64,000 bases of DNA, from NCBI GenBank assembly GCA_019310485.1, contig JAFDEF010000004.1:35890-99889 (forward strand). The letters are read 5' to 3'. Below the pieces are notes generated by a model. It saw only the letters and a list, made by a program, of their open reading frames with translations. It made no database searches and was not told the DNA's origin. This document shows, piece after piece, positions 5,015-23,309 of the stretch (its first letter is position 1; every line of letters begins with the position of its first letter). A program made the translations under genes and the position numbers. Source of the DNA: Deltaproteobacteria bacterium (GTDB taxonomy: Bacteria > Desulfobacterota > DSM-4660 > Desulfatiglandales > HGW-15).

Positions 5015-5054
5015 TACTAACCGATTTCAGGGTACTACCAGGGCCCTTTTGCAC

Positions 5055-5624
5055 ATGGAAAAAGAAATACAAAAAAGAATAAAGATGTATAGAAAAGACC
5101 GGGGCCTTACCCTTAGAGAGCTGGCTGAAAGGGCTGGGTGTACGCACTCCTATATTTCTCAGGTGGAAAAGGGAAAAAGTGTTCCATCTCTATCCATGGT
5201 GGGAAAACTTGCTTCCGCCCTTGAAGTTAGCGTGGTGGACCTTCTTAACGGTCTGCCGGGGGTAGAAGACAAAGGCGAATGGTATCTGAGCAAAAATGAT
5301 CGAAAAACAATAAATTATCCTGACGGCAAAGTTTCAAGCCAACTTCTGGTACCCCGGATTACAACCAGAAAGATGGAACCATTGATAAGTACAATAAAGC
5401 CTGGGGGCAGCTCTGATGCTGCCGAGGGGATGAATCACCCCCCTGGGACCGAGGAGTTTGTTTTCTTGATAAAAGGAGAGCTTGATTTTGCCGTAAACGG
5501 AAAGGAGATTCACCTAAAGGAGGGTGATACTCTCAGTTTTGACGGAAATCTGCCGCATAGCTGGGTGAACAGCAGCGGCAAAACAGCGGTGGTCCTTTTT
5601 GTGTTTACTCCACCCATATGGTGA
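5055..5624 (+). CDS. XRE-family HTH + cupin transcriptional regulator (copy 2)
   Basis: ORF 4986..5624. I prefer the ATG at 5055 (MEKEIQKRIKMYRKDRGLTLRELAERAGCTHSYISQVEKG). The C-terminus has a cupin motif (GDTLSFDGNLPHSWVN). Confidence 0.85.
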   Translation: MEKEIQKRIKMYRKDRGLTLRELAERAGCTHSYISQVEKGKSVPSLSMVGKLASALEVSVVDLLNGLPGVEDKGEWYLSKNDRKTINYPDGKVSSQLLVPRITTRKMEPLISTIKPGGSSDAAEGMNHPPGTEEFVFLIKGELDFAVNGKEIHLKEGDTLSFDGNLPHSWVNSSGKTAVVLFVFTPPIW

Positions 5625-5657
5625 GATGTGACCGGAAACAGAGGGGTAGAAGAAGTT

Positions 5658-8030: not shown

Positions 8031-8907
8031 CACCAGGATACTGACTCAAGAATTTGACTATTTTGCTCCTGAGTCAATAAAGCAGGTTGTTGAGCTGCTG
8101 GAAAGGCACGGAGAAGGGGCCAGGGTCATCGCAGGGGGGACAGACCTTATTAACCAGATGAAAGAGGAAAAGATGTCCCCCTCCTGCCTTGTAAACATCA
8201 TGAATGTTAAGGGCCTGCGCTACATCAAAGAGGATGAGGGACTTAGAATAGGAGCAGCAACAAAGCTCCGAGATGTGAGGGCTTACTGCTTTAAAAGCCG
8301 CTATGTTGCCCTATACGAGGCCATTTCCTCTTTAGGGAAGCCCCAGGTGTGGAATATGGGAACCATTGGGGGGAACCTCTGTAACGCCTCTCCTGCTGCT
8401 GACACTGCACCACCCCTGCTGGTTTTCAAAGCCCGTGTAAAACTTGTAGGCAAGGACGGAGAAAGGGAACTTTTGCTGGAGGATTTCTTTACAGGCGTTA
8501 ATAGCACTGTACTGCAGCCCACTGAATTGATGGTGGAAATTCACCTGGACCCTCCAGGTGATGGTGCGGGCAATGCTTTCCTGAAAGTAGCCAGGGTCGG
8601 AGCCGACATATCCAAGGTCAGCTGCGCGGTTTTTTTGAAAAGGCAGGGCCGGACTTGCACGGAGTGCAGGGTCGCCCTCGGTGCAGTAGCGCCTGTGCCT
8701 ATGAGGGTGAAGGTGGTCGAGGAAATGATTGAGGGTCGAGAAATTGAGGAATCTTTAGTGGCAAAGGCTAGCGAGATTGTTTCAGAGGAAGTTAAGCCGA
8801 TTGACGATATCAGGTCAAGTGCAGAGTACAGGAGACAAGTTGCCGCAGTGACTTTCAGGGATGTATTTTGGAAAGCCTGGGATCGGGCAATTGGAGGGAA
8901 AAATTGA
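8023..8907 (+). CDS. FAD-binding medium subunit of Mo-hydroxylase (CoxM/XdhB-like, M1)
   Basis: ARVIAGGTDLINQMK and GTIGGNLCNASPAADTAPPLL are the FAD_binding_5 signatures. The ATG at 8023 overlaps the L1 stop by 8 nt (ATGATTAA). Confidence 0.9.
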   Translation: MINTRILTQEFDYFAPESIKQVVELLERHGEGARVIAGGTDLINQMKEEKMSPSCLVNIMNVKGLRYIKEDEGLRIGAATKLRDVRAYCFKSRYVALYEAISSLGKPQVWNMGTIGGNLCNASPAADTAPPLLVFKARVKLVGKDGERELLLEDFFTGVNSTVLQPTELMVEIHLDPPGDGAGNAFLKVARVGADISKVSCAVFLKRQGRTCTECRVALGAVAPVPMRVKVVEEMIEGREIEESLVAKASEIVSEEVKPIDDIRSSAEYRRQVAAVTFRDVFWKAWDRAIGGKN

Positions 8908-9371
8908 ACAAGCGAAAAGTAACCTTCACTGTAAATGGAGAGAGACATGAGCTCGTGGTTGAGCCTAATGAGCTTTTGCTCAATGTGCTTAGAGAAAAGC
9001 TGGGGCTAACCGGAACAAAGTATGCCTGCGGCAAGGGCCAGTGCGGGGCTTGCACCGTTTTGGTTAATGGGGAATCTTTCTTAAGCTGCTTGACGCTGGC
9101 AGTTGCTGTTGATGGGGCGGAGATCCGTACAATAGAAGGCGTGGCTGAACCAGACGGCACTCTTGACCCAATTCAGGAGGCTTTTCTTGACAGCAGCGCT
9201 ATTCAATGTGGTTTTTGTACGCCGGGGATGGTCCTAATGGGCAGAGAGCTCCTGAATAGAAATCCGCGAGCCACAGAGGAAGAAATCAGAGAGCAGATCA
9301 AGGGCAACCTGTGCCGGTGCACTGGTTATTTTAGCATTGTCAGAGCCATAAAAAGCTGCTGCGAAAAATAA
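8904..9371 (+). CDS. [2Fe-2S] small subunit of Mo-hydroxylase (CoxS/XdhC-type, S1)
   Basis: CGKGQCGACTVLVNG plus CGFCTPGMV...CRCTGY are the two 2Fe-2S motifs. The likely TTG start at 8904 follows GGAGGG and overlaps the M1 stop (TTGA). The ORF-track ATG at 8868 is an alternative. Confidence 0.88.
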   Translation: MNKRKVTFTVNGERHELVVEPNELLLNVLREKLGLTGTKYACGKGQCGACTVLVNGESFLSCLTLAVAVDGAEIRTIEGVAEPDGTLDPIQEAFLDSSAIQCGFCTPGMVLMGRELLNRNPRATEEEIREQIKGNLCRCTGYFSIVRAIKSCCEK

Positions 9372-9397
9372 CTGTGATTGGAAGTGCACAATATTTA

Positions 9398-9474
9398 GGG
9401 GGGAAGGCAATGGATTTAGTGGTCAGCAGCCAGGGAGACTCGGAGCAGAAGAAATGCCCTTCCCCATTTTTATT
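9398..9474 (+). terminator. Possible terminator-like structure between the two Mo-hydroxylase gene sets
   Basis: GGGGGGAAGGCA (9398-9409) can pair with TGCCCTTCCCC (9455-9465), giving 10 bp with one bulge, followed by ATTTTTATT. The 45-nt loop is atypical. Confidence 0.25.
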
Positions 9475-9536
9475 GAGCTATTAGCAGCTATGATGTATAG
9501 GGCTTTTTTCCGGCGTTGAAAGGAGAAACCGCTAAA

Positions 9537-10421
9537 ATGATTGAGGCAGAGTACGTGGCCCCTTCAAATCTTGGGGAACTTTTTAAGTCCATTGAAGGCA
9601 GGGCCGAAAGGGTAAAATTTGTTGCAGGCTGCACAAACGTGTTGCCCGACTTGCGAGCGCAAAATCCAGCCCCGATGCTTTTGGTTGATTTAACCGGAAT
9701 AGAGGAGCTGCGCCGAATAGAAGAAAACAACGGTGTAATTTCCATAGGCTCACTGGCCACAATGACTGAACTCGCCGCATCTGAGATCATCAGGACCCAT
9801 GGCCCGATTCTCGCCTCAGCCGCAAGGGCCTTGGGCAACCCGCTGACGCGAAACAGGGCAACCATTGGTGGAAATATTGCAGATGCATCTCCTGCAGCTG
9901 ATACTGCGCCCCCACTGCTTGCCCTTGAAGCAACGATCCATACTGAGGGAGCCAGCCATGCAAAAAGGGAAATCCCTGTGGAGGAATTTTTCATTGGCCC
10001 CAACCAGACCGTGCTGAACCAGGGGGAACTTATTACACGGATCACTTTCCCAATACCAAAAGACCCCTCTGCCTCCAGCCATATCAAATTCGGCCTCAGA
10101 AATGCGATGGCTATCTCAGTGGTATCAGTGGCTGTTGTACTTGAAATGCAGGGGAATTTGTGCCATAGGGCACGAATTGCCCTGGGATCAGTGGCACCTA
10201 AGCCGATTCGAGCTTATCTGACAGAAAAAGAACTGGAGGGGAGAAAGATCACTGAGGAAGTTCTTGAAAGCTGCGCGGAAGTTGTTAAGAAGGAGATTTC
10301 TCCAATAACTGATATACGTGCTTCCGCACAGTACAGAGAGCATGTTACCGGCGTGCTTCTTAAGAGGGCACTTTGGCAAGCCGCCAGAGAAGGAGAGAAT
10401 AGTACAAATGGCAACATATAA
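9537..10421 (+). CDS. FAD-binding medium subunit of Mo-hydroxylase (M2)
   Basis: VKFVAGCTNVLPDLR and ATIGGNIADASPAADTAPPLL motifs. The ATG at 9537 is preceded by AAAGGAGA. Confidence 0.9.
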   Translation: MIEAEYVAPSNLGELFKSIEGRAERVKFVAGCTNVLPDLRAQNPAPMLLVDLTGIEELRRIEENNGVISIGSLATMTELAASEIIRTHGPILASAARALGNPLTRNRATIGGNIADASPAADTAPPLLALEATIHTEGASHAKREIPVEEFFIGPNQTVLNQGELITRITFPIPKDPSASSHIKFGLRNAMAISVVSVAVVLEMQGNLCHRARIALGSVAPKPIRAYLTEKELEGRKITEEVLESCAEVVKKEISPITDIRASAQYREHVTGVLLKRALWQAAREGENSTNGNI

Positions 10422-10881
10422 ACTTGAACTTAAGTTGAACGGAGAAAAGCTTAGTGCGCAGGTCCTTGCCCATGAAAACCTTTTGAGTGTAATGAGGAAC
10501 AAGCTTGGAGCCAAGGAAGTAAAGAACGGTTGCAATAAGGGAGACTGTGGAGCATGCGCCGTGCTGCTGGACGGGAAAGCTGTAAATGCCTGTCTTACGC
10601 TTGCCTTGCAGGCCAATGGCAAAGAAGTGACCACGGTCAAAGGTATAGGAACAGAGGATCAGCCCCATCCCCTTCAAGAAAGCTTTGTGAGGCACGGCGC
10701 CATACAGTGCGGATTTTGCACTCCCGGTATGATAGTCTCCTCCAAAGCGCTTCTTGACACGATTCCAAACCCGGACAGGAGGCAAATCAGGGAGGGGATT
10801 TCAGGAAACCTATGCAGATGCACCGGTTATAACAAAATTGTGGAAGCCATCGAGGATGCTGCTCTTAAAAGGAAATCATAA
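10408..10881 (+). CDS. [2Fe-2S] small subunit of Mo-hydroxylase (S2)
   Basis: MATYKLELKLNGEK..., CNKGDCGACAVLLDG, CGFCTPGMI, CRCTGY. The ATG at 10408 overlaps the M2 3' end by 14 nt. Confidence 0.9.
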   Translation: MATYKLELKLNGEKLSAQVLAHENLLSVMRNKLGAKEVKNGCNKGDCGACAVLLDGKAVNACLTLALQANGKEVTTVKGIGTEDQPHPLQESFVRHGAIQCGFCTPGMIVSSKALLDTIPNPDRRQIREGISGNLCRCTGYNKIVEAIEDAALKRKS

Positions 10882-10899
10882 ACTAAGCGGAGATAAGAC

Positions 10900-13212
10900 G
10901 TGAAAAAGGATCCAAAAGACCAACTATCAAATTATGAGTACCAGTTTATAGGCAAGCCTGTGCCCCGCCATGATGCATGGGACAAGGTTTTTGGCAGGAC
11001 GAAGTATGCAGATGATTTTGATATGCCTGGCATGCTTTTTGGGAAGGTACTTAGAAGTTCTTATCCAGCTGCAAAGATCCTTTCTATCGATACTTCCGGG
11101 GCGGAAAAGATGCCCGGAGTGGCCGCAGTTTTGACGGCAAAGGACGTTCCCAACAATGAGACAGTTACTCGATTTGGCCAGACTCACCAAGTAGGAGGAT
11201 TTGAAGGCCTGTACAGGGTTCTAGCAGATAAGAAAGTAAGGTTCATGGGAGAGGCAGTGGCGCTGGTGGCTGCGGAGACTGAGGAGATTGCCGAAGAGGC
11301 TCTGGCGCGTATCAAAGTGGAATACGAGCAGTTGCCAGGAGTATTTGATCCGCTGGAAGCAATGAATCCAGATGCATATCAGGTGGGGGAGGGAGACAGC
11401 AACATTATCTGCAACTACCAGGTCAGAAAAGGAGATGTGAAAGAGGGATTTTCCCGTTCGCATGTTGTTGTTGAGAATACCTACAGGGTCCCCTTTGTTG
11501 AACATGCTTTCTTGGAGCCTGAATCAGGAATCGCCTGGATTGATGATAGCGAGATCATCACTATCCGTGTCTCCACCCAGGTAATCGAGCATTTTAGAGA
11601 CGTGGCGGATGTGCTTGGGATCCCACACAACAAGGTGAGGGTGATTGCCCCGATGGTGGGAGGAGGGTTTGGTAGCAAGGAAGACATCACGGTTGAGACC
11701 TTTTTGGCGCTTCTAACCTGGAAAACCGGTAAGCCTGTGAAAATGACGTGGACAAGAGAGGGGTCAATAATCTCCTCCAGCAAGCGGCATCCTTACGTCA
11801 TGAAATACAAAACAGGAGCAACAAGGGACGGCAAGTTGATGGCTATGGAGGCGCAGTTGATCTCAGATGCCGGAGCGCATGTTTATTTAAGCCCCTGGGT
11901 TCTCCTTTATTCTACTGTTGATGCCACGGGCCCCTACGATATTCCCAATGTCAAAGTAGATTCTTACACCGTGCTTACGAACAATACTTTCACGAGCGCA
12001 AATCGAGGCTTTGGCGCTCCACAGGTCTGCTTTGCTTATGAATCTCAGATGGATGAGCTGGCCAGGAGATTAAGCCTCTCCCCGCTTGAAATACGCAAGA
12101 GGAATTATCTCCGAAAAGGGGATGCGCTGGCCACAGGTAGGGTGCTGGAATACGGAGTTGAGACGGAAAAAACCGCGATAAAAGCACTTGAGGCCCTTGG
12201 GGAACCTTCGATGCCTTCGTCTCCCACGGAGAAAATCGGCCAGGGCCTGGCATCCGGCATGATGAGTTACGGCAGGATGACTTTTCTTCACGACACTTCG
12301 CGATCTTACGTTGGGATAGAACTGGATGGAAGCGTTACTGTCAGGTGCGGGGTGCAGGATATCGGGGGCGGCCAGGCATCATCTCTGGCATCCATTGCCG
12401 CTGAAATTCTTGGTGTACCCATGGAAGAGATCAAGGTGTTTATTGGGGATACAGCGCTCACTCCAATAGCAGGAACGACGACGGCCACAAGGATGCTTTA
12501 CATGTCCGGGAACGCCACCCTTAAGGCCGCCACGGAAGTTAAGAAAAGTCTTTTGCCCAAGGCAGCGGAAATGCTGGAGGCCAGTCCTGAGGACCTGGTT
12601 TTCAGAGACAAGAAGGTTTTTGTAAGAGGAGCGCCTGCAAGGGCTATACCGCTTGCAGATGTGGTAAAAGCCTGTGCCGCAGATGGAGTGCAGCTTTACA
12701 ATGTAGCTCAGTTTAATGCGCCGTTTAGAGAGCTGATTGACTTTAAAACGGGTCAGGGCCAGGTTTTCCCTGATTTTACATTTGGATCCCATGCCGTGGA
12801 AGTGGCTGTTGATACCGAGACAGGGAAAGTGAGGGTGCTAAAGCTGGTAGCGTGCTACGATGTGGGCCAGGCTATTAACCCCCTTAGTGCTGAGGGGCAG
12901 ATTGAAGGAGGTGCCCTTTATGGTCTTGGGTATGCCCTCACAGAGGAAGTGATCCTGGACAAAGGCATCACGCTCACCCCTTCGTTTTCCGAGTACCTGG
13001 TTCCCACATCAGTGGACGCACCTCATGTCAAAACAATCATGCTGGAGTCAAGGGATGGAGCAGGACCTTTTGGTGCAAAAGGAATAGGGGAACCATCGTG
13101 CAACTCCATTGCACCCGCAGTGGCTAATGCAGTGGCCAATGCCATAGGAGCAAGGATTTTGGACCTTCCCCTGACGCCTGAAAAGATACTCAGGTCCCTG
13201 CAGAAGCTCTGA
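10900..13212 (+). CDS. Xanthine dehydrogenase-family molybdopterin-binding large subunit (L2), xanthine-dehydrogenase-like active-site residues
   Basis: 770 aa with a GTG start. It carries GGGFGSKE, NRGFGAPQ and GAKGIGEP. From memory these align with bovine XDH GGGFGGKE(Glu802), FR(880)GFGGPQ and the catalytic Glu1261 motif. Confidence 0.9.
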   Translation: MKKDPKDQLSNYEYQFIGKPVPRHDAWDKVFGRTKYADDFDMPGMLFGKVLRSSYPAAKILSIDTSGAEKMPGVAAVLTAKDVPNNETVTRFGQTHQVGGFEGLYRVLADKKVRFMGEAVALVAAETEEIAEEALARIKVEYEQLPGVFDPLEAMNPDAYQVGEGDSNIICNYQVRKGDVKEGFSRSHVVVENTYRVPFVEHAFLEPESGIAWIDDSEIITIRVSTQVIEHFRDVADVLGIPHNKVRVIAPMVGGGFGSKEDITVETFLALLTWKTGKPVKMTWTREGSIISSSKRHPYVMKYKTGATRDGKLMAMEAQLISDAGAHVYLSPWVLLYSTVDATGPYDIPNVKVDSYTVLTNNTFTSANRGFGAPQVCFAYESQMDELARRLSLSPLEIRKRNYLRKGDALATGRVLEYGVETEKTAIKALEALGEPSMPSSPTEKIGQGLASGMMSYGRMTFLHDTSRSYVGIELDGSVTVRCGVQDIGGGQASSLASIAAEILGVPMEEIKVFIGDTALTPIAGTTTATRMLYMSGNATLKAATEVKKSLLPKAAEMLEASPEDLVFRDKKVFVRGAPARAIPLADVVKACAADGVQLYNVAQFNAPFRELIDFKTGQGQVFPDFTFGSHAVEVAVDTETGKVRVLKLVACYDVGQAINPLSAEGQIEGGALYGLGYALTEEVILDKGITLTPSFSEYLVPTSVDAPHVKTIMLESRDGAGPFGAKGIGEPSCNSIAPAVANAVANAIGARILDLPLTPEKILRSLQKL

Positions 13213-13238
13213 ACGATTTAGCCTGAAGGGGGTTAGAT

Positions 13239-14183
13239 ATGAAGTCAAGTTTGACCGTCTTGGCTATAGGCGGTAATTCTCTAATAAAGGACAGGAAAAG
13301 CGTTGCCCTCCAGGACCAGTACGAGGCAGTCAAGGAAACAACTCGGTATATTGCAGACCTTATTGAAAACGATCTTAATATTGTGATAACTCATGGAAAT
13401 GGCCCCCAGGTGGGTTTTATTTACAGGAGGGGAGAACTGGCTCAACATGAGCTACCGCTGATACCTCTGGATATCTGTGGTGCAGATACCCAGGGGGCTA
13501 TTGGCTACATGATTGAGAAAGCGCTTCTAAACGAACTTCGCAAAAGAGGAGTTGAAAAAAGAATTACTGCTCTGGTAACAATGACCCTTGTTGACAGGGA
13601 TGACAGCTCTTTTCAAAACCCAACAAAGCCGATCGGGTCCTTTATGCCAAGGGAAAAGGCGCTTGCCAACAAGGAGCAGTTTGGGTGGGATATAGCGGAG
13701 GATGCAGGCAGAGGCTTCAGGCGTGTTGTGCCTTCCCCGATCCCCAGAAAAATAATAGAACTGGATGCTATTAAAACCCTTCTTGAAAAAAACTATGTTG
13801 TAATTGCTGCCGGGGGTGGCGGGATCCCTGTAATCAAAAATGACGCAGGGGATCTTGAGGCTGTAGAAGCTGTTATTGATAAAGACCTGGGGTCTTCTCT
13901 TCTGGCCAGAAACCTGGGTGCTGATACGTTCATAATTTCAACCTCGATTGATGCGGCATACCTTAATTTCGGACAGGAAAACCAAGAGCCCCTCAGGCAT
14001 GCCACACTTTCGGACATGAAGGAATATCTTGAGCAGGGACATTTCAAGCCCGGCTCCATGAAGCCGAAGGTCGAATCAATCGTTCAGTTCCTTGAAGGTG
14101 GTGGGAAAAGGGCGATTATCACTTTACCTGAAAACCTGCTAAAGGCGGTGAACGGGGAGTGCGGAACAACGATCACGGCTTAG
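13239..14183 (+). CDS. arcC: Carbamate kinase
   Basis: 314 aa. VLAIGGNSL... and ITHGNGPQVG are amino-acid-kinase-fold carbamate kinase signatures. AAGGGGIPV is also present. Confidence 0.9.
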   Translation: MKSSLTVLAIGGNSLIKDRKSVALQDQYEAVKETTRYIADLIENDLNIVITHGNGPQVGFIYRRGELAQHELPLIPLDICGADTQGAIGYMIEKALLNELRKRGVEKRITALVTMTLVDRDDSSFQNPTKPIGSFMPREKALANKEQFGWDIAEDAGRGFRRVVPSPIPRKIIELDAIKTLLEKNYVVIAAGGGGIPVIKNDAGDLEAVEAVIDKDLGSSLLARNLGADTFIISTSIDAAYLNFGQENQEPLRHATLSDMKEYLEQGHFKPGSMKPKVESIVQFLEGGGKRAIITLPENLLKAVNGECGTTITA

Positions 14184-14231
14184 AAGTGACAAATACATAT
14201 GTGAACGGGTTGAGAGAGAAAGGAGCGAAAA

Positions 14232-15158
14232 ATGGGGTTTGAAGGAAGAGACATTCTTTCAACAGAGGATTTTACCAAGGATGAGATTCTGGAAATCATG
14301 GAAGTGAGTGCCAGGATGGAGGAACTGGCCAGAACAAAAGGCGTCTCCAACCTCCTCTCAGACAAGATTGTGGCAGTAATCTTTTTAGAACCTTCCACCC
14401 GTACCAGGCTTTCATTTGAAACAGCGATCAGGAGGCTTGGCGCAGGATGCATCACTGTGGCGGATGCAAAAACATCTTCAGCAGCCAAGGGTGAGACCCT
14501 TGCCGATACCGCCCGTACTATAGAAGGCTACGTGGACTGCATAATCGTGCGCCAGCCAATGATTGGGGGGGCCAAGTTGATGGCTGACGCTGTGAGTGTT
14601 CCTGTAATAAATGGAGGGGATGGCCCGGGCCAGCACCCAACCCAGGCACTCCTGGATCTTTATACGATTAAGAAAGAGACAGGCAGGCTTGAGCAGCTCA
14701 AGGTGGCAATGGTGGGTGATCTAAAGTATGGAAGAACCGTTCACTCACTTTCCTATGCGCTAGCCCCTTTTTTGCCGGAAAGATATATCTTTTGTGCTCC
14801 AGATGCCTTGCAAATGCCCAAAAATATTGTTGCGGACATGAAAGCAAAAGGTATCACCTGCCAGCAAACTTCCGGGCTTGAAGATGCCCTCGAGGCTGAC
14901 ATTCTTTACATGACGCGCATTCAAAGAGAACGTTTTGATAACCCGGCAGACTATGAGAAACTCAAGGGAAGCTACATCCTGACCCGCGAGATATTGGAAA
15001 AAGGCAACAAAGAGATCACCGTCATGCATCCCCTGCCAAGAGTGGATGAAATAAGCACGGATGTTGACGACCTACCCAATGCAGCCTATTTCAGGCAAGC
15101 CCATAACGGTGTGTTTCTGAGAATGGCTCTCCTGGCAATGATTATGGGCAGAGCATAG
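14232..15158 (+). CDS. pyrB: Aspartate-carbamoyltransferase-type (PyrB-like) transcarbamylase
   Basis: 308 aa with STRTR, HPTQ and HPLPRVDEI motifs. HPLPR is the ATCase type rather than the OTCase HCLP type. No pyrI or pyrC is adjacent; it sits directly after carbamate kinase. Confidence 0.75.
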   Translation: MGFEGRDILSTEDFTKDEILEIMEVSARMEELARTKGVSNLLSDKIVAVIFLEPSTRTRLSFETAIRRLGAGCITVADAKTSSAAKGETLADTARTIEGYVDCIIVRQPMIGGAKLMADAVSVPVINGGDGPGQHPTQALLDLYTIKKETGRLEQLKVAMVGDLKYGRTVHSLSYALAPFLPERYIFCAPDALQMPKNIVADMKAKGITCQQTSGLEDALEADILYMTRIQRERFDNPADYEKLKGSYILTREILEKGNKEITVMHPLPRVDEISTDVDDLPNAAYFRQAHNGVFLRMALLAMIMGRA

Positions 15159-15267
15159 AAGCGCATTTCAGCAAAGTTTATCCTTACCATTTTTCCGCTA
15201 CCGGAAGTAAGCCTCGCAGCCACTTTGGGCGTGGGAAAGAAAATTTGCGAAAAAAGGCAATTTTTTG

Positions 15268-15297
15268 TTGACAAAGATATATCATATATCATATATT
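15268..15297 (+). promoter_or_regulatory. Sigma70-like promoter candidate in an AT-rich repeat tract upstream of the GntR gene
   Basis: TTGACA at 15268-15273, then about 18 nt, then TATATT at about 15292-15297. It is embedded in atatcatatatcatatattatatt (iterated ATATCAT). Confidence 0.4.
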
Positions 15298-15396
15298 ATA
15301 TTTTGTATATTAAGAAATTTTTTCTCCAAGACCTATTATGGTGATATTATATGAAATAATCCTTTGGTCAGATCTTATTCAGTTTAGGGGTTTGCT

Positions 15397-16110
15397 ATGC
15401 AAAGTACCTTAAGAAACACTTCATTGACTACCGGTCTTGCGGTGAGCGGACAGCCGAAGCTTTACAAACAGATCTGGAAAGCGATTGCAGAAGGAATTAA
15501 GGAGGACATCATAAGTGGATATTACCGACCAGGAGACCGTCTTGTAGAGGCTGAATTGGCAGCCAAATATGATTCAAGCAAGACACCGGTGAAGGAGGCA
15601 CTGCGATATCTAAACGGCATCGGTTTCGTTGAGGTTGTGCCTTACAAAGGTGCGATTGTTACGAAAATGGACAAGAACGATGTTATCAGCCTTTACAAAA
15701 TTCAAAGCGTTTTAGAGGCATTGGCGGCGCGTGAGGCCCTTCCGAATCTTGGTAAAGCAGACTACGACAAAATGGAGACATATGCAGGCCTGCTAGAAAA
15801 TTACTACCGAGAGGGCAAGAAGGACAAATATGAGAAGGCTAACCTTATGTTTCATTCTGTTGTGTGGGGAGGTCTTGATAACAGAAACTTAATTGATCTA
15901 ATTATTACTATCCGGGAGAAGCTTCAGAGATATCGCCCAATAACTAGACGCTATCCGGAAAAATTCAAGGAGCTTGTCGCTGAGCATCGAAAAATGATTC
16001 ACGTTCTGAAAGAAAAGGACGTCAATAGGGCTGAGAAAATGGTCCGGAGACATTATGAAAAAAACGCTGAGATAATTGTCAGTATCTTGGAAAGGGAAGA
16101 TGGGTTTTAA
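15397..16110 (+). CDS. GntR-family transcriptional regulator (FadR/FCD-type C-terminal domain)
   Basis: 237 aa. YRPGDRLVEAELAAKYDSSKTPVKEALRYLNGIGFVEVVPYKGAIV is the GntR winged HTH. The C-terminus is helical. Confidence 0.85.
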   Translation: MQSTLRNTSLTTGLAVSGQPKLYKQIWKAIAEGIKEDIISGYYRPGDRLVEAELAAKYDSSKTPVKEALRYLNGIGFVEVVPYKGAIVTKMDKNDVISLYKIQSVLEALAAREALPNLGKADYDKMETYAGLLENYYREGKKDKYEKANLMFHSVVWGGLDNRNLIDLIITIREKLQRYRPITRRYPEKFKELVAEHRKMIHVLKEKDVNRAEKMVRRHYEKNAEIIVSILEREDGF

Positions 16111-16272
16111 AGATTCAAGGAGAGAGCTCTTTTTGCCTGTGTACTCTTTTGAAAGCCAGCCACAATTTTTTCTCTCTGCACTCATCAGTGCTGAAAGGAT
16201 ATGGATAAAGCTGTAAGGGAAGTGTAGGAAATTGAAATCAAAAATCATTTTTTCCAAAAGGAGGGAACGGAG

Positions 16273-17907
16273 ATGCGAAAGGGGACTATTTTCTTTGGAG
16301 TGGCTTTAGCATGGGGCTTTATTTTAGCATTCGTCCTCGGACTAGTGATGCCAACAGCAGCCCAAGGGAAAGAGCCTGTTGTTCTCAAAGCTTGGGCCCT
16401 GACCTATCCTGAACCCGTGGAAATCTGGCGAGTTTTGAGTGACGATTTAAGGGAATTGGGTATCCAGGTAAAATTGCGAAACGGTTCCATTGGTGAGTGG
16501 GTGGGGGACATCATTCGAAAAGAGAATCCCTACCACCTTGTCACCATGACTTGGTCGGGGTCGCCCGAGCGGATAGAGCCTTCTTGGTTCCTAACAGAAT
16601 TTTTCCACTCCAGCAGGATTGAAAGAGGGCGAAATTATGGCAATTATGTGAGTAAGAAGTTTGACGCTTTGATGAAAACTCAGTTGAGGGAAATGGATCC
16701 TGAAAAAAGAAAGCAATTGCTTTGGAAGGCCCAGGAAATTATCAACCGAGACAATGCCTTTTTCCCCATCTATCATCACGATATGATTCAAGCTTACAAT
16801 TGCGATAGAATTGAAGGCGTGATTCCGACGATGGGATCCTGCATCGGGTGGCCTTACAATCCTTGGACCTTTTTTAGGGCTAGGCCAAAAGGCAAGATCC
16901 GGGAACCCCGAGTTGTTAACAGAAAAGACCTGATGTCCACGAATCCTTTTGCGGCTCAAGAGGCCCAAACAATGGGCTGGATGAGGCTCATTTATGATAC
17001 GTTTGCCAAACGAGACAAGGATTCTAAGTTGATACCATGGGCGGCCGAATCTTGGAACATTGTTGACGATACCACGGTCGACATTGTTCTAAGGGATGGC
17101 ATGAGGTTTCATGATGGTAAGCTGGTCACCGTAGAGGATGCAAAATTTACCTTTGATTATATTATGAAATGGAAATTTCCTATGTTTTCTGCTGATTGGC
17201 GCAATATTGAGCATGTGGAGATTAGAGATGGGCGGACGCTGCGGTTCAAGTTGAAAAGTCCTTACGCACCCTTTGTCGCGAATATCTTGTTGAACACCTT
17301 CATCATACCCAAGCACATATGGAAAGATATCCCTAGTTCTGTTGGTGTGGCAAACCCAATGGACTGGCCCAATCCCACGCCGATTGGCAGTGGCCCTTAC
17401 CAGTTGGTGGAGTGGAAGAAGAAAGAGTACTTTCATCTAAAGGCAAACAAGAATCATTTTATCAAACCTAATTTTGATGGATTGTACTATCTGGTCGTCC
17501 CTACTACTGAAGGGATGATAGCTATGCTTGAAAAGCAACAGGCTGAAATTTATGGATTTGCCCTTGATGCGGTTCAGGCAAACAAGCTTGATGCTCTTCC
17601 CTATTTAAAAACGGTTAGAGTACCAAATCATTCAATAACAGAAATACGGCCAAATTTCAAGATGAGACCCACGAGCGACCCCAGTTTCAGGCGGGCCTTC
17701 CAATATGCTATTAACAGAAAAGGATTGTTGGACATTGTATACCAGGGCCAAGGGGTGGTAGCACACAATACGCCAATTATTCCCATCAATAAACCATGGA
17801 GCAATCCCAACGTACCATCCATTAAATTTGATCTGGGCAAGGCGACACAGATCCTTAAAGAAGCGGGCTATACATGGGATTCGAAGGGACGTTTGTGTTA
17901 CCCATAG
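16273..17907 (+). CDS. Family-5 (DppA/OppA/NikA-type) ABC substrate-binding protein, apparently circularly permuted
   Basis: 544 aa with signal peptide MRKGTIFFGVALAWGFILAFVLGLVMPTAAQG. Residues about 33-205 resemble the C-terminal third of canonical family-5 SBPs. Residues about 215-544 resemble the N-terminal two thirds (see finding). Confidence 0.8.
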   Translation: MRKGTIFFGVALAWGFILAFVLGLVMPTAAQGKEPVVLKAWALTYPEPVEIWRVLSDDLRELGIQVKLRNGSIGEWVGDIIRKENPYHLVTMTWSGSPERIEPSWFLTEFFHSSRIERGRNYGNYVSKKFDALMKTQLREMDPEKRKQLLWKAQEIINRDNAFFPIYHHDMIQAYNCDRIEGVIPTMGSCIGWPYNPWTFFRARPKGKIREPRVVNRKDLMSTNPFAAQEAQTMGWMRLIYDTFAKRDKDSKLIPWAAESWNIVDDTTVDIVLRDGMRFHDGKLVTVEDAKFTFDYIMKWKFPMFSADWRNIEHVEIRDGRTLRFKLKSPYAPFVANILLNTFIIPKHIWKDIPSSVGVANPMDWPNPTPIGSGPYQLVEWKKKEYFHLKANKNHFIKPNFDGLYYLVVPTTEGMIAMLEKQQAEIYGFALDAVQANKLDALPYLKTVRVPNHSITEIRPNFKMRPTSDPSFRRAFQYAINRKGLLDIVYQGQGVVAHNTPIIPINKPWSNPNVPSIKFDLGKATQILKEAGYTWDSKGRLCYP

Positions 17908-17929
17908 TATATGTGTATATAGTATGTAG

Positions 17930-17958
17930 TTGTCGAGGACGCCTTGCGTCCTCGACAA
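17930..17958 (+). promoter_or_regulatory. Strong intercistronic stem-loop after the SBP gene (13-bp stem)
   Basis: TTGTCGAGGACGC ctt GCGTCCTCGACAA read directly. There is no clear U-tract. It could be an mRNA-stability element or partial terminator that raises SBP:permease stoichiometry. Confidence 0.5.
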
Positions 17959-18063
17959 TTGTTGCGTACTGCCATCAGCAGCGAATAAAGGGGCTCTACT
18001 CCCCATAGCCAATCAAGCCCTAGGACCGTCCTGGGGAGGGGCGTTTCCGTCCGCTTAGGTCGC

Positions 18064-18933
18064 ATGGAAATGGGAGTTTGGAAACGGAATTTAAAGTTAA
18101 TATTACATAACCCGATGGGTATGTTTGGGGTTGCGACTCTTTCGACATTCGCGTTGCTTGCCATTTTTGCCCCCCTTATCATGCCCTATGATCCCATGAA
18201 GTGCCAATACATTGACGGGGAGCTGGCAAGGCTGCAGCCTCCCAGTATGCACTTCTTGTTGGGCACAACCCATTTTGGCCGGGACGTTTTGAGCCAAGTG
18301 ATTATTGGCTCGAGGGTGGCTTTGATTGTAGGATCACTGGCGGCTATTTTTCTTACTTTTATTGGAACTAATATCGGTTTGGTCGCTGGCTATTGTGGTG
18401 GTCGCGTAGACAGCTTGCTTATGCGGCTCACAGACATTGCTTTTGGGATCCCTTTCATCCCCTTTGCTTTTCTTCTGATTGCTTTGGTAGGCCCTTCGAT
18501 CTGGAATATTATTATCGTGATATCCTTTCTCATGTGGCGGACCACAGCAAGGGTGATCCGTTCTCAAGTCCTGAGTTTGAAGGAGCGACCCTTTATTACA
18601 GCTGCAAAGGTAAGCGGGGCTAGTCACTTGAGGATTATGTATGTTCACATCTTGCCCAATGTATTACCTATGTCTTTCTTATATATCGCCCTGGGGATTG
18701 CCTGGTCCACGTTATCTGAGGCAAGTCTAAGCTTTTTGGGTATAGGGGATCCTAGGATGATCAGCTGGGGGCAAATGCTTTATTATGCCTTTATTACCGG
18801 ATCCGCGCGTACTGCTTGGTGGTACGTATTACCTCCCGGAATTTGTATAGCTCTCTTCGTGATATCGGCCTTCATGGTGGGGCAGGCTTACGAAGAAGTT
18901 GTGAACCCCCGATTGAGAAAAAGAAATTCCTAA
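18064..18933 (+). CDS. Dpp/Opp/Nik-type ABC permease (DppC/OppC-like)
   Basis: 289 aa. N-terminal OppC_N-like segment followed by a BPD_transp_1 core (RLTDIAFGIPFIPFAFLLIALVGPS...PFITAAKVSGAS). Confidence 0.9.
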   Translation: MEMGVWKRNLKLILHNPMGMFGVATLSTFALLAIFAPLIMPYDPMKCQYIDGELARLQPPSMHFLLGTTHFGRDVLSQVIIGSRVALIVGSLAAIFLTFIGTNIGLVAGYCGGRVDSLLMRLTDIAFGIPFIPFAFLLIALVGPSIWNIIIVISFLMWRTTARVIRSQVLSLKERPFITAAKVSGASHLRIMYVHILPNVLPMSFLYIALGIAWSTLSEASLSFLGIGDPRMISWGQMLYYAFITGSARTAWWYVLPPGICIALFVISAFMVGQAYEEVVNPRLRKRNS

Positions 18934-18935
18934 GC

Positions 18936-19985
18936 ATGCAAGCAGCGATCGAAAATGAAAACGAGATGCTTTTACAGGTCGATGACCTGAAAGTGGATTA
19001 CCAAATGGAGGGAGCGGTAGGCAGGGCAGTGGATGGGGTTTCCTTTGCCCTACGAAAAGGGGAGTGTATCGGCCTGGTTGGGGAATCAGGCTCAGGCAAG
19101 AGCACAATTGCCAAGGCAATTCTCAAATTACTTCCTTCCAATGGTGCACTGGCTGGGGGAAGAGTTATTCTCAAGGGCAGAGATATAAGCCATTTTACGG
19201 AAGAGGAGATGGATGCCATCCGTTGGGCAGAGATCTCACTGGTGCCACAGAGTGCCATGAACGCCTTGAATCCTGTTCAACGAATATCCAGCCAGATGGT
19301 AGAGACGTTCCTGGCTCATCAGGCTAAGGCCGATTCCAGAAAGACCTTACTGGATAAATGTCAGCAGCTTTTTGAAATGGTTGGTCTGAGTAGAAATCGG
19401 ATTTTTGATTATCCACACCAGTTCAGCGGCGGAATGAGACAAAGAGCCACTATCGCTATGGCTATTGCCCTTGAGCCATCTGTGGTAATTGCCGATGAGC
19501 CAACCACAGCCCTAGATGTCATTATGCAGGCCCAAATCATTAATTTGCTGAAATCCTTGAGTGAAGATAAGGGAGTTTCCATTATTCTGATTACCCATGA
19601 TATATCCATTGTTGCCCAGATATGTCAAAGGGTTGGGGTTATGTATGCAGGGCGTCTTGTGGAATCCGGTGACATCTTGAAGGTATTTAATAATCCTTTT
19701 CATCCGTATACGATGGGTTTGAAGGCCGCCTTTCCTACGATCAAGGAACTGAAAAAGACCCTCATCTCTATTCCGGGAAGTCCTCCCTTATTGACTAAAC
19801 GGCTAGAAGGCTGCTGCTTTTCGGATAGATGCCCCTTTTCTATTGAGCAATGCCAGAGGGTAATCCCGCACACCGTTACAATTAGAGAAGACCACTATGT
19901 GGCATGCCACCGTATTGAATATGCGGAGCGCTTCAGAAAAGAAATTATCGATATTTTTGGAACCAGGGTCAGGGGCCAGTCGTAA
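18936..19985 (+). CDS. Dpp/Opp-type ABC ATPase (DppD/OppD-like)
   Basis: ATG at 18936, immediately after the permease stop. Walker A GESGSGKST, signature FSGGMRQR, Walker B VVIADEPTTALD, and a C-terminal oligo_HPY-type extension. Confidence 0.9.
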   Translation: MQAAIENENEMLLQVDDLKVDYQMEGAVGRAVDGVSFALRKGECIGLVGESGSGKSTIAKAILKLLPSNGALAGGRVILKGRDISHFTEEEMDAIRWAEISLVPQSAMNALNPVQRISSQMVETFLAHQAKADSRKTLLDKCQQLFEMVGLSRNRIFDYPHQFSGGMRQRATIAMAIALEPSVVIADEPTTALDVIMQAQIINLLKSLSEDKGVSIILITHDISIVAQICQRVGVMYAGRLVESGDILKVFNNPFHPYTMGLKAAFPTIKELKKTLISIPGSPPLLTKRLEGCCFSDRCPFSIEQCQRVIPHTVTIREDHYVACHRIEYAERFRKEIIDIFGTRVRGQS

Positions 19986-20974
19986 TGATTGAGGTGAAGG
20001 ATCTTCAAAAGTCTTTTGCTGTGAAAGAAACTTTTTTCAGTGCTTTTACTTCACTTCTCAAAAAAAAAGAGAAACGGATAAGGGCGGTAAATGGCATTTC
20101 TTTTAGCATCCATGCTGGTGAGATCATGGGGGTGGCAGGGGAGAGTGGCTGTGGAAAAACAACCACTGCCATGCTACTCCTTGGTTTGTATCGTCCTTCG
20201 GGAGGAAAAGTGCTTTTTGAAGGGATGGATATTTCCTCTCTGAAAGGAACAGAACTAAGATATTTTCGCAGAAAGGCACAGCTCATTTTTCAGGATCCTT
20301 ATGAGTCGCTAAATCCCAGGTTCACTGTGTACCGAACTATTGAAGAACCATTAATCGTAAATCGCCTTCGACGCAAAAGCGAACGCAGAGAAAAGATCAT
20401 GAAAGCTATGGAAAAGGCTAAATTAATGCCTTTGGAGGCTTTTTGCGATAAATACCCGCACGAACTGAGTGGCGGCGAACGGCAAAGGGTGTGCATTGCC
20501 AGAGCAATTGTCCTGGAGCCCGTTCTTCTGATTGCGGATGAAGCCACTTCTATGCTGGATGTATCCATCCGGGCCGGTATCTTGGAAATTATTAAGGAGC
20601 TAACAGAAGAAATGAAAATGGCTACGCTTTATATTTCTCATGATATGTCTCTTTTGGGAAGTATATGCGACAAGATTGGAATAATGTACGCGGGGGAGAT
20701 AGTGGAAATTGGAAGGTCTGAAGATATTATCCAATCTCCCTTGCACCCCTATACCAGAGCTTTAATTGAAGCAGTTCCAGTTCCTGAATTTCGGCGGGCT
20801 AAACTCAAACTGAAAGCCATTGCCGGGGAGCCACCGGATTTGGTTAATCTCCCCAGAGGATGCAGTTTTCGACTGAGGTGCGAAAGGGCTATTAAGGCTT
20901 GCCGGACATCAAGGCCAAAGCTTTTCGAGGTGAAACAAGGTCACTTTGTGGCCTGCCATCAGGTGGGAGACTAA
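19985..20974 (+). CDS. Dpp/Opp-type ABC ATPase (DppF/OppF-like)
   Basis: TAATG stop/start overlap with the previous gene. GESGCGKTT, LSGGERQR, LLIADEATSMLD. Confidence 0.9.
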   Translation: MIEVKDLQKSFAVKETFFSAFTSLLKKKEKRIRAVNGISFSIHAGEIMGVAGESGCGKTTTAMLLLGLYRPSGGKVLFEGMDISSLKGTELRYFRRKAQLIFQDPYESLNPRFTVYRTIEEPLIVNRLRRKSERREKIMKAMEKAKLMPLEAFCDKYPHELSGGERQRVCIARAIVLEPVLLIADEATSMLDVSIRAGILEIIKELTEEMKMATLYISHDMSLLGSICDKIGIMYAGEIVEIGRSEDIIQSPLHPYTRALIEAVPVPEFRRAKLKLKAIAGEPPDLVNLPRGCSFRLRCERAIKACRTSRPKLFEVKQGHFVACHQVGD

Positions 20975-20976
20975 TC

Positions 20977-21948
20977 TTGGAGAGGAGATATATCGCAAGT
21001 CGGATAGCTCAAACCATCATTACGCTTTACGCGGTATTAACGCTGATGTGGGTCCTGTTTCGTCTTGTCCCCGGAGATCCTACAGCTATGTTCTTAAGCG
21101 GCCGATTGTCACCTGAAGATGTTGAGGCTATAAGAAAATTATGGGGGCTCGATCAGCCTTTACACGTCCAATATTTCAAATATATGAAAAATCTTTCCAT
21201 GGGTGATCTGGGAATATCCTTTTCCTACCGGGAGCCAGTGCTTAAGGTGATGCTTCCAGCCCTTTTCAATACATTAATTCTCATGATTCCTTCTATATTG
21301 ATGGCCATTGTAGTTGGCACTCTCATGGGCACCAATCTGGGATGGAAGAGGGGAAGCGCACGCGAGAGAATAGGGGTGGTGCTGTCCTTGTTTGTGCGGT
21401 CTTTTCCTGTGTTCCTAACCGGTATTATTGTTTTAATGATCTTTGTCCATCTGCTTGGGTGGTTTCCATTGGGAGGGATGAGGACCATTGGCGCATTTGG
21501 TCTTTCATGGTGGGAGCGATTTCTGGATGTGAGCCATCATTTGGCTTTACCCTTTGGGGTTGCATTTCTTTACTATGTTGGGGATGTCGTGGTTATATCA
21601 AGAACGAGCATGTTAGAAATGATAGGAGAAGAATTTCTCCAATTTGCCAAAGCACGAGGTCTATCCGACAAAAAGGTTAAAAAGATTGCAATGCGCAATG
21701 CCATTATCCCTGTTATTACTTACTCCACAATACTCATTGGTTTTGCTTTTGGTGGGCAGGTTTTGCTCGAAGTTGTCTTTGCTTGGCCGGGGGTTGGACG
21801 GCTAATGGTGAATTCCGTTCAGATACACGATTACCCGGTTGCTCAGGCAGCCTTTTTTCTCATGGCTACCGCCGTCATTATTGCCAATTTGCTGGTCGAC
21901 TTTTCTTATGGCTATCTTGATCCGCGGATTTCAATCCAAAAGCGCTAG
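20977..21948 (+). CDS. Dpp/Opp/Nik-type ABC permease (DppB/OppB-like)
   Basis: ORF 20899..21948. I prefer the in-frame TTG at 20977, after AGGTGGGAG (LERRYIASRIAQTIITLYAVLTLMWVLFRLVPGDP, the typical DppB N-terminus). Confidence 0.85.
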   Translation: MERRYIASRIAQTIITLYAVLTLMWVLFRLVPGDPTAMFLSGRLSPEDVEAIRKLWGLDQPLHVQYFKYMKNLSMGDLGISFSYREPVLKVMLPALFNTLILMIPSILMAIVVGTLMGTNLGWKRGSARERIGVVLSLFVRSFPVFLTGIIVLMIFVHLLGWFPLGGMRTIGAFGLSWWERFLDVSHHLALPFGVAFLYYVGDVVVISRTSMLEMIGEEFLQFAKARGLSDKKVKKIAMRNAIIPVITYSTILIGFAFGGQVLLEVVFAWPGVGRLMVNSVQIHDYPVAQAAFFLMATAVIIANLLVDFSYGYLDPRISIQKR

Positions 21949-21959
21949 CAGAAAAGGGA

Positions 21960-21980
21960 TTTGGGCCGCAAGGGCCCAAA
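21960..21980 (+). promoter_or_regulatory. Intercistronic GC-rich hairpin between the permease and the rdhA-like gene
   Basis: TTTGGGCC gcaag GGCCCAAA (8-bp stem), followed by GAGGAAG and the ATG at 21995. Confidence 0.4.
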
Positions 21981-21994
21981 GTAGAGGAAGCAAA

Positions 21995-23179: not shown

Positions 23180-23309
23180 TGGGGGCCGAAAACCCAGGCT
23201 GACACTCGAATTTGAAAGAAAAGTTCTATGCCTGCAGAAAAACGTGGAATGAAGTATGATCTGGAGATTGACCTCGGATACCGATGATTATGAAAAGGAG
23301 AATATTATA

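Follow-up and report, generated by a model that had tools for sequence, protein, structure and literature searches.

The 64-kb stretch of deltaproteobacterial DNA analysed here (64,000 nt of contig JAFDEF010000004.1; hereafter, the window) carries a gene for carbamate kinase (CK) followed by pyrB, the gene for the catalytic chain of aspartate carbamoyltransferase (ATCase). The pair closes an operon-like row on the + strand that begins with two helix-turn-helix (HTH)-cupin regulators and continues with two gene sets of the xanthine dehydrogenase (XDH) family of molybdenum (Mo) hydroxylases, named here MoA (large-medium-small subunit, L-M-S, 5628-9371) and MoB (M-S-L, 9516-13212). The observations (enzyme identities, gene order, orthology, recurrent associations and the make-up of the Mo module in other phyla) are solid and form an unexpected, testable pattern: the gene itself is an ordinary pyrB, and CK and Mo-hydroxylase genes recur beside it. 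We tentatively propose, with somewhat less than even confidence, that the resident PyrB and CK strip the carbamoyl group from N-carbamoyl-aspartate made by the Mo module, yielding ATP. An initial annotation of this DNA, which had suggested phosphorolysis of an N-carbamoyl compound followed by CK, is partly supported: that order of reactions is a reasonable reading, but the gene is the orthologue of resident pyrB and not a dedicated catabolic paralogue.

Carbamate kinase and aspartate carbamoyltransferase

Both reading frames are intact and 48 nt apart, as first annotated, and both products exceed the cutoffs of their equivalog models. The CK gene (13239-14183, + strand; ribosome-binding site GGGGG) encodes 314 aa that score 364.7 bits with the NCBIfam model TIGR00746 (arcC; cutoff 358.25) and 391.9 bits with NF009007 (cutoff 266), while the AA_kinase domain (PF00696) spans residues 5-295. 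By these models the protein is a genuine carbamate kinase; its clade, at 73-79% identity, is common in metagenome-assembled genomes (MAGs) of Deltaproteobacteria/Thermodesulfobacteriota. The pyrB gene (14232-15158, + strand; ribosome-binding site AAGGAG) encodes 308 aa, 100% identical to MBW2299165.1 of a deltaproteobacterial MAG, that pass TIGR00670 (asp_carb_tr) with 370.9 bits against a cutoff of 236.95 and NF002032 with 315 bits against 263.

Is this transcarbamylase a true ATCase or one of the ATCase-fold enzymes of ureide breakdown? Genuine ATCases carry the motifs S[TR]RT, HP[ST]Q, HP[LG]P and RXQ, the last two of which are changed in pseudo-ATCases, to HPLA, H[ST]LP or HSLP for HPLP and to AIA/AIS/SIA, GX[SC] or VXP for RXQ (Barba et al., 2013; PMC4016543). 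The window protein has STRTR at residues 55-59, HPTQ at 135-138, R229-I-Q231 and HPLPR at 266-270, invariant in 32 relatives, so that the motifs binding carbamoyl phosphate and aspartate are all intact; HPLP and RIQ are kept, which is not the pattern of a pseudo-ATCase. Its top matches in the PDB are the ATCases of M. jannaschii, P. abyssi (1ml4, the second-best) and E. coli. Because the motifs and the closest solved structures are those of authentic ATCases, the protein is, as far as its sequence tells, a genuine ATCase (PyrB, ATC II type) with an intact aspartate site and not a pseudo-ATCase. The canonical motifs reported in the initial annotation thus hold up, including at the aspartate-binding residues that it left for inspection. 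Its statement that no catabolic ATCase-fold enzyme had been characterised does not, given the 2013 assay (PMC4016543) of the ureidoglycine carbamoyltransferase (UGTCase) of Rubrobacter xylanophilus, Rxyl_2847, a pseudo-ATCase of group 1 whose gene neighbours those for CK, allantoinase and XDH. Our literature search found no genuine ATCase that acts catabolically on carbamoyl-aspartate.

The MoB large-subunit stop codon lies 26 nt ahead of CK, and a promoter and terminator scan gave no above-chance signal between the genes of the row, the CK-ATCase gap included. The only strong promoter-like site in that scan is 3' of the ATCase gene (15268-15297, score 11/12), and an Rfam search of the window found no PyrR attenuator, riboswitch or other family. 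CK, pyrB and the two Mo-hydroxylase sets, all in the same orientation, are probably co-transcribed.

Orthology of the pyrB gene

For comparison, 119 related loci (designated by L-numbers; L001 is a MAG contig 98.5% identical to the window) were gathered and their neighbouring genes were mapped by tblastn and clustering. Forty-nine non-duplicate loci, with ATCases 52-97% identical to that of the window, make up its clade, and 57 other ATCase loci were set against them. The metagenome matches listed include at least six close relatives, the remainder serving as the comparison set, and a pattern search of genome contigs with query-specific peptides returned only distant ATCases (25-53% identity, mostly from Bacteroidota).

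A pyrI gene adjoins pyrB in 0/49 clade loci versus 32/57 of the more distant loci (ATCases of at most about 52% identity), which makes its absence a trait of the clade and not an anomaly. The initial annotation had pointed to the lack of pyrI, pyrC and carAB nearby; the lack is real, but it is nothing out of the ordinary for these bacteria. Homologues of PyrI, PyrC, PyrE and ArgF and a second transcarbamylase were sought by tblastn and found nowhere in the 64 kb, where the only reading frames of CarB size encode an SMC protein and a NuoF-GltD fusion. With no PyrI homologue in the window, the enzyme does not qualify as a class B holoenzyme (PyrB6-PyrI6).

Close relatives of the window gene stand in biosynthetic surroundings. 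An ATCase 82% identical to it is encoded in pyrE-pyrB (L031), one at 73% in a locus with argF-argG, a PyrC' gene on the - strand and pyrE-pyrB-RNaseT (L030), and one at 72% in pyrB-PyrC'-pyrE (L028); a second lineage of the clade has the order argF-(PyrC or PyrC')-pyrB-pyrE. The pyrB-RNaseT junction of L030 is the same as in L001, L026, L035 and the window, and in those four loci (L001, L026, L030 and L035) the RNase_T gene, 60-97% identical, is adjacent to pyrB or follows it shortly. In a neighbour-joining tree, ATCases linked to CK or Mo genes interleave with those linked to pyrE, pyrC or argF, with no separate "catabolic" clade. By position and sequence, then, the window gene is the orthologue of a resident, housekeeping-type pyrB.

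The protein termed PyrC' is an amidohydrolase of 446-451 aa whose gene adjoins pyrB in 13/49 clade loci (for instance L028 11241-12590, L030 7516-8862, L060 8595-9950 and L113 5206-6561). It is closer to D-hydantoinases than to dihydroorotases (299 versus 172 bits against the PDB; 365-383 bits with TIGR02033, cutoff 393) and only 37-44% identical to the hydantoinases of the Mo module described below. It fills the slot in argF-X-pyrB-pyrE that is held by canonical PyrC in sister loci, and within that lineage it tends to occur with CK or Mo genes. That PyrC' is simply a dihydroorotase was considered; it is closer to the D-hydantoinases, yet shares the slot with canonical PyrC, and it may be a dihydroorotase analogue or a carboxymethylhydantoinase.

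Recurrent association of pyrB with carbamate kinase and Mo-hydroxylase genes

CK is the immediate neighbour of pyrB, before or after it, in 12/49 clade loci versus 1/57 others, a pairing that exceeds chance, although the loci counted are not phylogenetically independent. These CKs are 40-99% identical to that of the window, which means that the pairing arose or was kept in several lineages. Some of them sit inside arginine and pyrimidine clusters, as in pyrB-CK-pyrE (L069), argF-pyrB-CK (L057), PyrC'-pyrB-CK (L043) and PyrK-like-argF-PyrC'-pyrB-CK (L111).

Orthologues of MoA, MoB or both occur near pyrB in 9/49 clade loci versus 0/57 others, in at least five arrangements. Mo genes are followed by CK and then pyrB in the window, L001 and L035; in loci of a complete Spirochaetaceae genome and of relatives (L002, L032, L033), MoA (L-M-S) runs into a pyrB that overlaps its stop codon; and pyrB precedes MoA in L038 and L040. 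The order is MoB_L-MoA_L-MoA_M-argF-MoA_S-PyrC'-pyrB-CK-pyrE in L047 and L113, MoB-PyrC' in L062, and XdhC-MocA-pyrB-PyrC' in L028. Such variety argues against simple inherited synteny. A literature search for Mo enzymes linked to pyrB turned up nothing relevant. The setting described initially, with Mo-hydroxylase genes on one side and a GntR/transporter module on the other, is thus recurrent in its first half, whereas the second half is missing from the nearly identical L001.

In L047 (10-2337) and L113 (295-5181), an argF for a TIGR00658-type ornithine carbamoyltransferase (OTCase) is wedged between the genes for the FAD and [2Fe-2S] subunits of MoA, which is unusual. In L048 (Ga0187773_10000872), argF-PyrC'-pyrB-CK is followed by a gene for a second ATCase-family protein (7633-8736, 39% identity) with SNRT for STRT and Q-I-P for R-x-Q and with HPLP kept. 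It falls outside all three published groups of pseudo-ATCases and is a candidate for a new CK-partnered transcarbamylase.

A CK 74% identical to that of the window occurs in a different cluster, L112 (1291-15033; GCA_040960625.1 JBFOMW010000070.1). The genes there encode DctM, a TRZ/ATZ amidohydrolase, a PreA-like DHO_dh/Fer4_21 protein (290 bits, cutoff 335), an Aminotran_3 protein, an OTC-like transcarbamylase (297 bits, cutoff 281), a cyclic amidohydrolase, CK, TctBAC and two M20 amidohydrolases. This cluster resembles one for reductive pyrimidine-type catabolism that includes a phosphorolytic step.

The Mo-hydroxylase module

MoA and MoB each have the L, M and S domains of the three-subunit XDH family, and near the C-terminus of the large subunit each has the G-x-G-E motif that in the XDH family holds the catalytic Glu (GPFGAKGVGE in MoA_L, GPFGAKGIGE in MoB_L). 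In the PDB both large subunits come closest to the alpha subunit of 4-hydroxybenzoyl-CoA reductase (4-HBCR), with 295 and 383 bits respectively, and both fall below every NCBIfam equivalog cutoff (XdhA 491-526 against 780; HcrA 436-539 against 995). Neither medium subunit has the four-Cys, [4Fe-4S]-binding insertion of 4-HBCR. Retention of G-x-G-E together with the lack of that insertion fits hydroxylases and not reductases, and MoA and MoB look like ordinary hydroxylases whose substrate specificity is assigned by no family model.

Three other assignments were considered and set aside. A 4-HBCR-like reductive dehydroxylase was rejected for want of the [4Fe-4S] insertion, and xanthine dehydrogenases feeding a pathway of the YgeW or allantoin type were rejected with no equivalog passed and the partner genes absent. 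A Mo enzyme might also stand in for dihydroorotate dehydrogenase, pyrD being absent from all clusters; the module is without pyr genes in three phyla. We know of no chemical precedent for such a replacement.

What does the module do where pyrB is not its neighbour? MoA_L is 73-84% identical in records of Desulfobacterales, Desulforhopalus singaporensis, Aminicenantes, Acidobacteria and Thermoleophilia, MoB_L orthologues (66-80%) adjoin MoA in L035 and L113-L119, and the HTH-cupin-MoA-MoB unit is conserved at 66-84% across Desulfobacterota, Aminicenantes, Acidobacteria and others. Contexts seeded with MoA, and so unbiased toward ATCase, show the unit to be a conserved catabolic module, probably ureide-forming and laterally spread. 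In Aminicenantes it comes with AroM, an amino-acid racemase that passes asp_race/CuyB, a D-hydantoinase homologue and a novel 347-aa transcarbamylase; in Acidobacteria/TARA records MoA and MoB are joined by AroM, a D-hydantoinase (398 bits, cutoff 393), a second amidohydrolase and a sodium:solute symporter; and D. singaporensis has MoB with two amidohydrolases, then HTH-cupin and MoA with a racemase-family protein. By gene content this back end is the classic "hydantoinase" toolkit: a racemase, a cyclic amidohydrolase, and a decarbamoylation that is either hydrolytic or catalysed by a transcarbamylase. Modules with their own ring-opening and decarbamoylating enzymes are not beside pyrB, and those beside pyrB are without such enzymes. 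An aspartase gene close to the module in D. singaporensis was considered as proof of an aspartate end-product and then downgraded, lying as it does on the opposite strand among unrelated genes, apparently in a separate operon.

The 347-aa transcarbamylase (L118 18403-19446; L119 11740-12783) always follows MoA-MoB-AroM-racemase-hydantoinase. It has STRTR and HPTQ, with HVMPFDRG where HCLP or HPLP would be expected, and it scores under every NCBIfam cutoff (OTC 214 against 306; AOTC 211 against 288). The protein probably represents a new subfamily of catabolic transcarbamylases.

A possible pathway and its alternatives

In the scheme that we favour, the two Mo-hydroxylases would add two water-derived oxygens to an N-heterocycle, giving a cyclic ureide of the hydantoin or dihydropyrimidine type. 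A cyclic amidohydrolase, encoded in some other lineages as the D-hydantoinase homologue of the module and in this bacterium presumably outside the window, possibly as the dihydroorotase or a PyrC'-type enzyme, would open the ring to N-carbamoyl-aspartate. Phosphorolysis by PyrB would then release aspartate and carbamoyl phosphate, and CK would pull this unfavourable step by making ATP, CO2 and NH3. PyrB would thereby do double duty, biosynthetic and catabolic, with the catabolic genes gathered around the one enzyme that the pathway needs and does not supply itself. Ring opening followed by phosphorolysis and CK is reasonable because the module of this Mo pair elsewhere carries racemases, hydantoinase-type enzymes and decarbamoylating enzymes. 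The nature of the substrate, the way the flux runs, the joint transcription of the row and a second role for PyrB are what we infer. A literature search found no prior description of a genuine ATCase in a catabolic role fed by a Mo-hydroxylase module.

Several points weigh against this scheme. The equilibrium of the ATCase reaction strongly favours carbamoyl-aspartate. The window gene is the positional orthologue of a resident pyrB and shows no sign of catabolic specialisation in its sequence, and relatives at 72-82% identity stand in pyrE-pyrB, pyrB-PyrC'-pyrE and argF-pyrC-pyrB-pyrE contexts. No ring-opening amidohydrolase, racemase or AroM was found in the cluster or across the 64 kb, which leaves an essential step of the pathway without a candidate here. 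CK and pyrB also pair with no Mo genes within 8-10 kb (L026, L111), where CK amid argF, PyrC', pyrB and pyrE reads equally naturally as a biosynthetic hub for carbamoyl phosphate, and the loci of the Spirochaetaceae type have Mo genes and pyrB with no CK nearby. The Aminicenantes transcarbamylase resembles OTC and AOTC, not ATCase. The link to aspartate comes almost wholly from the adjacency of pyrB. The association counts are drawn from related, non-independent metagenomic loci.

A purely biosynthetic PyrB, with CK exchanging carbamoyl phosphate with the anabolic transcarbamylases, is a serious rival that we nevertheless regard as doubtful. In anoxic habitats rich in ammonium and CO2, CK could make carbamoyl phosphate from carbamate as a one-ATP "anabolic CK"; or it could be a valve that regains ATP from surplus carbamoyl phosphate, for example that derived from citrulline through a reversible OTCase. 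This would account for CK within arginine and pyrimidine clusters (argF-PyrC'-pyrB-CK-pyrE in L113, and L111, L069, L057 and L043), where the ArgF of relatives passes TIGR00658 (447 bits), PyrE passes TIGR00336 and sister loci have a canonical PyrC in the slot of PyrC', and it agrees with the orthology of the window ATCase. It leaves unexplained the repeated and variously arranged adjacency of MoA/MoB and pyrB, including Mo subunit genes interleaved with argF and PyrC'. Moreover, by an estimate from general chemistry, there is very little free carbamate at neutral pH with moderate ammonium. An anabolic CK has been proposed for Pyrococcus (PMC6022934), and pyrimidine carbamoyl phosphate in T. 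kodakarensis comes from a reversed OTCase, but disruption of arcC there barely affected pyrimidine prototrophy (PMC13260591), and no bacterial anabolic CK turned up either in these carbamoyl-phosphate papers or in a search aimed at anabolic CK. PyrB could also be a bystander at an insertion hot spot where a mobile HTH-cupin-MoA-MoB-CK island has landed, its ring-opening enzymes and partner transcarbamylase being encoded elsewhere. The pyrB-RNaseT junction is certainly variable: it is free of genes in L030 and L001, has an insert of about 7 kb in each of L026 and L035, and has one of 11.3 kb in the window. Between lineages MoA_L (66-75%), MoB_L (66-73%) and CK (74%) are more alike than the adjacent ATCases (54%), which suggests lateral spread of the module, and MoA-seeded loci of three other phyla have no pyrB within 10 kb. 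Such a bystander seems unlikely to us: chance would have to bring the genes together in at least five arrangements and several phyla, at times so tightly that stop and start codons overlap (L002) or that genes interleave (L047, L113), and no transcarbamylase other than PyrB is encoded in the clusters of the window, L001 or L035 or elsewhere in the 64 kb.

Two further readings keep a catabolic transcarbamylase and differ in its nature or its substrate. That the gene is a neofunctionalised paralogue, a new pseudo-ATCase for carbamoyl-beta-alanine, ureidoglycine/allantoate, oxalurate or carbamoyl-diaminopropionate, is suggested by the CK adjacency and nearby XDH-family genes, which recall the Rubrobacter UGTCase cluster. 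All four motifs of genuine ATCases are nevertheless present with none of the diagnostic replacements, the score lies 134 bits above the PyrB equivalog cutoff, and copies in pyrE/pyrC contexts are 72-82% identical with no clade set apart; by these motif and orthology comparisons the idea is largely refuted and now highly improbable. A more specific form of the scheme that we favour, and for the present a long shot, makes the HTH-cupin-MoA-MoB unit the core of an undescribed anaerobic pathway for 4-substituted imidazoles, the simplest being imidazole-4-acetate (from histamine or histidine). Two water-dependent hydroxylations would convert it to hydantoin-5-acetate (C5H6N2O2 + 2 O = C5H6N2O4), an isomer of dihydroorotate, which AroM and Asp/Glu-racemase-family proteins would racemise and a D-hydantoinase-type enzyme would open to N-carbamoyl-aspartate. 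In lineages like that of the window the housekeeping ATCase would run in reverse and CK would gain one ATP per ureido group. A literature search on the chemistry of carboxymethylhydantoin and imidazoleacetate found nothing relevant; this reading, if true, would give genuine ATCases their first catabolic role.

Comparison with known systems

In the hydantoinase process, a racemase, a D-hydantoinase and an N-carbamoyl-amino-acid amidohydrolase act in turn, and the modules of other phyla resemble it in their AroM and Asp/Glu-racemase-family proteins, D-hydantoinase homologues and further amidohydrolase. Clostridium oroticum reportedly ferments orotate and has a carboxymethylhydantoinase, as Lieberman and Kornberg are said to have described in the 1950s. 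Both 5-carboxymethylhydantoin and dihydroorotate open to N-carbamoyl-aspartate, which C. oroticum decarbamoylates hydrolytically, with ureidosuccinase, and not by ATCase and CK. Unlike these two systems, the window has none of the genes concerned, and to our knowledge a Mo-hydroxylase feeder is known for neither of them.

A CK gene adjoining a transcarbamylase gene is an accepted signature of a catabolic pair (reviewed in PMC6022934), and UGTCase with CK and YgeW with YqeA, beside Mo-hydroxylases and hydantoinase-type enzymes, are experimentally established (PMC4016543; 10.1101/2025.05.19.654654; 10.1101/2025.04.24.650524). The UGTCase system shares with the window an ATCase-fold transcarbamylase encoded beside CK and near XDH-family genes, a closest authentic relative that is likewise an ATCase of the P. 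abyssi type, and the logic of ureide phosphorolysis followed by ATP formation through CK. It differs in that pseudo-ATCases are extra paralogues with HPLA and AIA/AIS/SIA that act on allantoate, whereas in the window protein HPLP and RIQ are intact, the PyrB equivalog cutoff is exceeded and the gene is the orthologue of resident pyrB; the UGTCase cluster also has cyclic amidohydrolases, while that of the window has neither an allantoinase nor another cyclic amidohydrolase.

The 2,8-dioxopurine (reductive uric acid) pathway, with XdhD/DOPDH, YgfK, SsnA, HyuA, YgeW, YgeY, YgeX and YqeA (10.1101/2025.05.19.654654; 10.1101/2025.04.24.650524), likewise runs from a Mo enzyme through ring-opening amidohydrolases and a hydantoinase to a transcarbamylase and CK, with gain of ATP. 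The window does not belong to it, lacking YgeW, YgeX, YgeY and HyuA; its only SsnA-like protein (206 bits, cutoff 444) lies inside the variable island described below, its Mo enzymes are three-subunit (L/M/S) and nearer to 4-HBCR than to XdhD, and its transcarbamylase is PyrB.

In the arginine and agmatine deiminase pathways CK also pulls an unfavourable ureido phosphorolysis, and there too a transcarbamylase gene and a CK gene stand side by side, in one transcript (PMC6022934). They employ a dedicated catabolic OTCase or putrescine carbamoyltransferase, often with an altered oligomeric state, whereas the candidate here is an ordinary anabolic-type ATCase, and the feeder there is a deiminase where that of the window would be Mo-hydroxylases. 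The anabolic CK of Pyrococcus ("CK-like CPSase", that is, carbamoyl-phosphate synthase) is coupled to ATCase and OTCase, and the window ATCase is closest to archaeal ATCases; but that system is archaeal and hyperthermophilic, its in vivo role in T. kodakarensis is now questioned (PMC13260591), and the window belongs to a bacterium with Mo-hydroxylases alongside.

Layout of the locus and flanking genes

All genes of the row are on the + strand. The first HTH_3 + Cupin_2 regulator by Pfam (4368-4955) is PuuR-like, with 82.9 bits against an NCBIfam PuuR cutoff of 211, and is identical in L001. The second (4986-5624, Pfam) has copies 47-62% identical directly 5' of MoA_L in L035, L114, L118 and L119, and its orthologues precede MoA in the Aminicenantes and Desulforhopalus loci. 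MoA consists of a large molybdopterin subunit (5628-8030; Ald_Xan_dh_C, MoCoBD_1, MoCoBD_2), a medium FAD subunit (7993-8907; FAD_binding_5, CO_deh_flav_C) and a small 2x[2Fe-2S] subunit (8868-9371; Fer2, Fer2_2), the true start of which is likely near 8904, judging from the L001 gene call (4673-5140, offset 4231). MoB has the corresponding medium FAD (9516-10421; FAD_binding_5, CO_deh_flav_C) and small 2x[2Fe-2S] (10318-10881; Fer2, Fer2_2) subunits, the latter likely starting near 10408 by the L001 gene call (6177-6650), and a large molybdopterin subunit identified by Pfam (10900-13212), for which 1rm6 is the closest PDB entry (383 bits).

Downstream of the CK/ATCase unit, blastn aligns L001 with the window at 98.5% identity over 4232-15150 and 26456-29145, and L001 holds 744 nt in place of the 11.3 kb between them (15151-26455). 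By this replacement the GntR/transporter/reductive-dehalogenase-like/amidohydrolase/LarA module is a strain-variable island and not conserved context. Identified with Pfam and NCBIfam, it encodes a GntR/FCD regulator, an Opp/Dpp-type ABC transporter, a reductive dehalogenase (RDH)-like Fe-S protein, a TRZ/ATZ-type amidohydrolase (best model 5'-deoxyadenosine deaminase, 330 bits, cutoff 522) and a LarA-like protein below all cutoffs for LarA homologues, and it brings its own strong promoter-like site (15268-15297). Its left junction falls in the last ATCase codons, the product being 308 aa in the window and 310 aa in L001. L026 and L035 have a different insert of about 7 kb at the same pyrB-RNaseT site. 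The RNase_T-family exonuclease gene (26401-27018, + strand; Pfam) serves as the synteny anchor on the far side.

RDH-family proteins that pass TIGR02486 (217-225 bits) are encoded at 1618-2754 (- strand) and 21839-23179 (+ strand). An RDH-family gene sits inside a branched-chain-type ABC transporter operon just 5' of the HTH-cupin genes, the same RDH/ABC transporter arrangement is found directly 5' of CK-pyrB in L026 (4261-5400), and Acidobacteria/TARA loci have two RDH-family copies 5' of MoA/MoB (L115 1-2252). Just past the RNase_T gene, three large redox genes (27107-34336, - strand) encode a GltD-like protein (Fer4_20 + Pyr_redox_2, 492 aa, 100% conserved in L001), an 841-aa Fer2_4/NuoG-like/molybdopterin protein with a C-terminal DHODB_Fe-S_bind domain and the NuoF-GltD fusion (1039 aa), which may together make up an NAD(P)H/ferredoxin-linked complex.

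Implications

If CK feeds PyrB in these bacteria, it would be the first bacterial anabolic carbamate kinase. If PyrB and CK work in the phosphorolytic direction, carbamoyl-aspartate would join citrulline, carbamoylputrescine, allantoate and 2,3-diureidopropionate among the ureido compounds that yield ATP by substrate-level phosphorylation, and a textbook biosynthetic enzyme would have been borrowed by a catabolic module rather than duplicated. The variable back end of that module (hydantoinase and amidohydrolase, a novel transcarbamylase, or PyrB and CK) offers a handle on what appears to be a widespread anaerobic pathway for N-heterocycles in sediments and the ocean.

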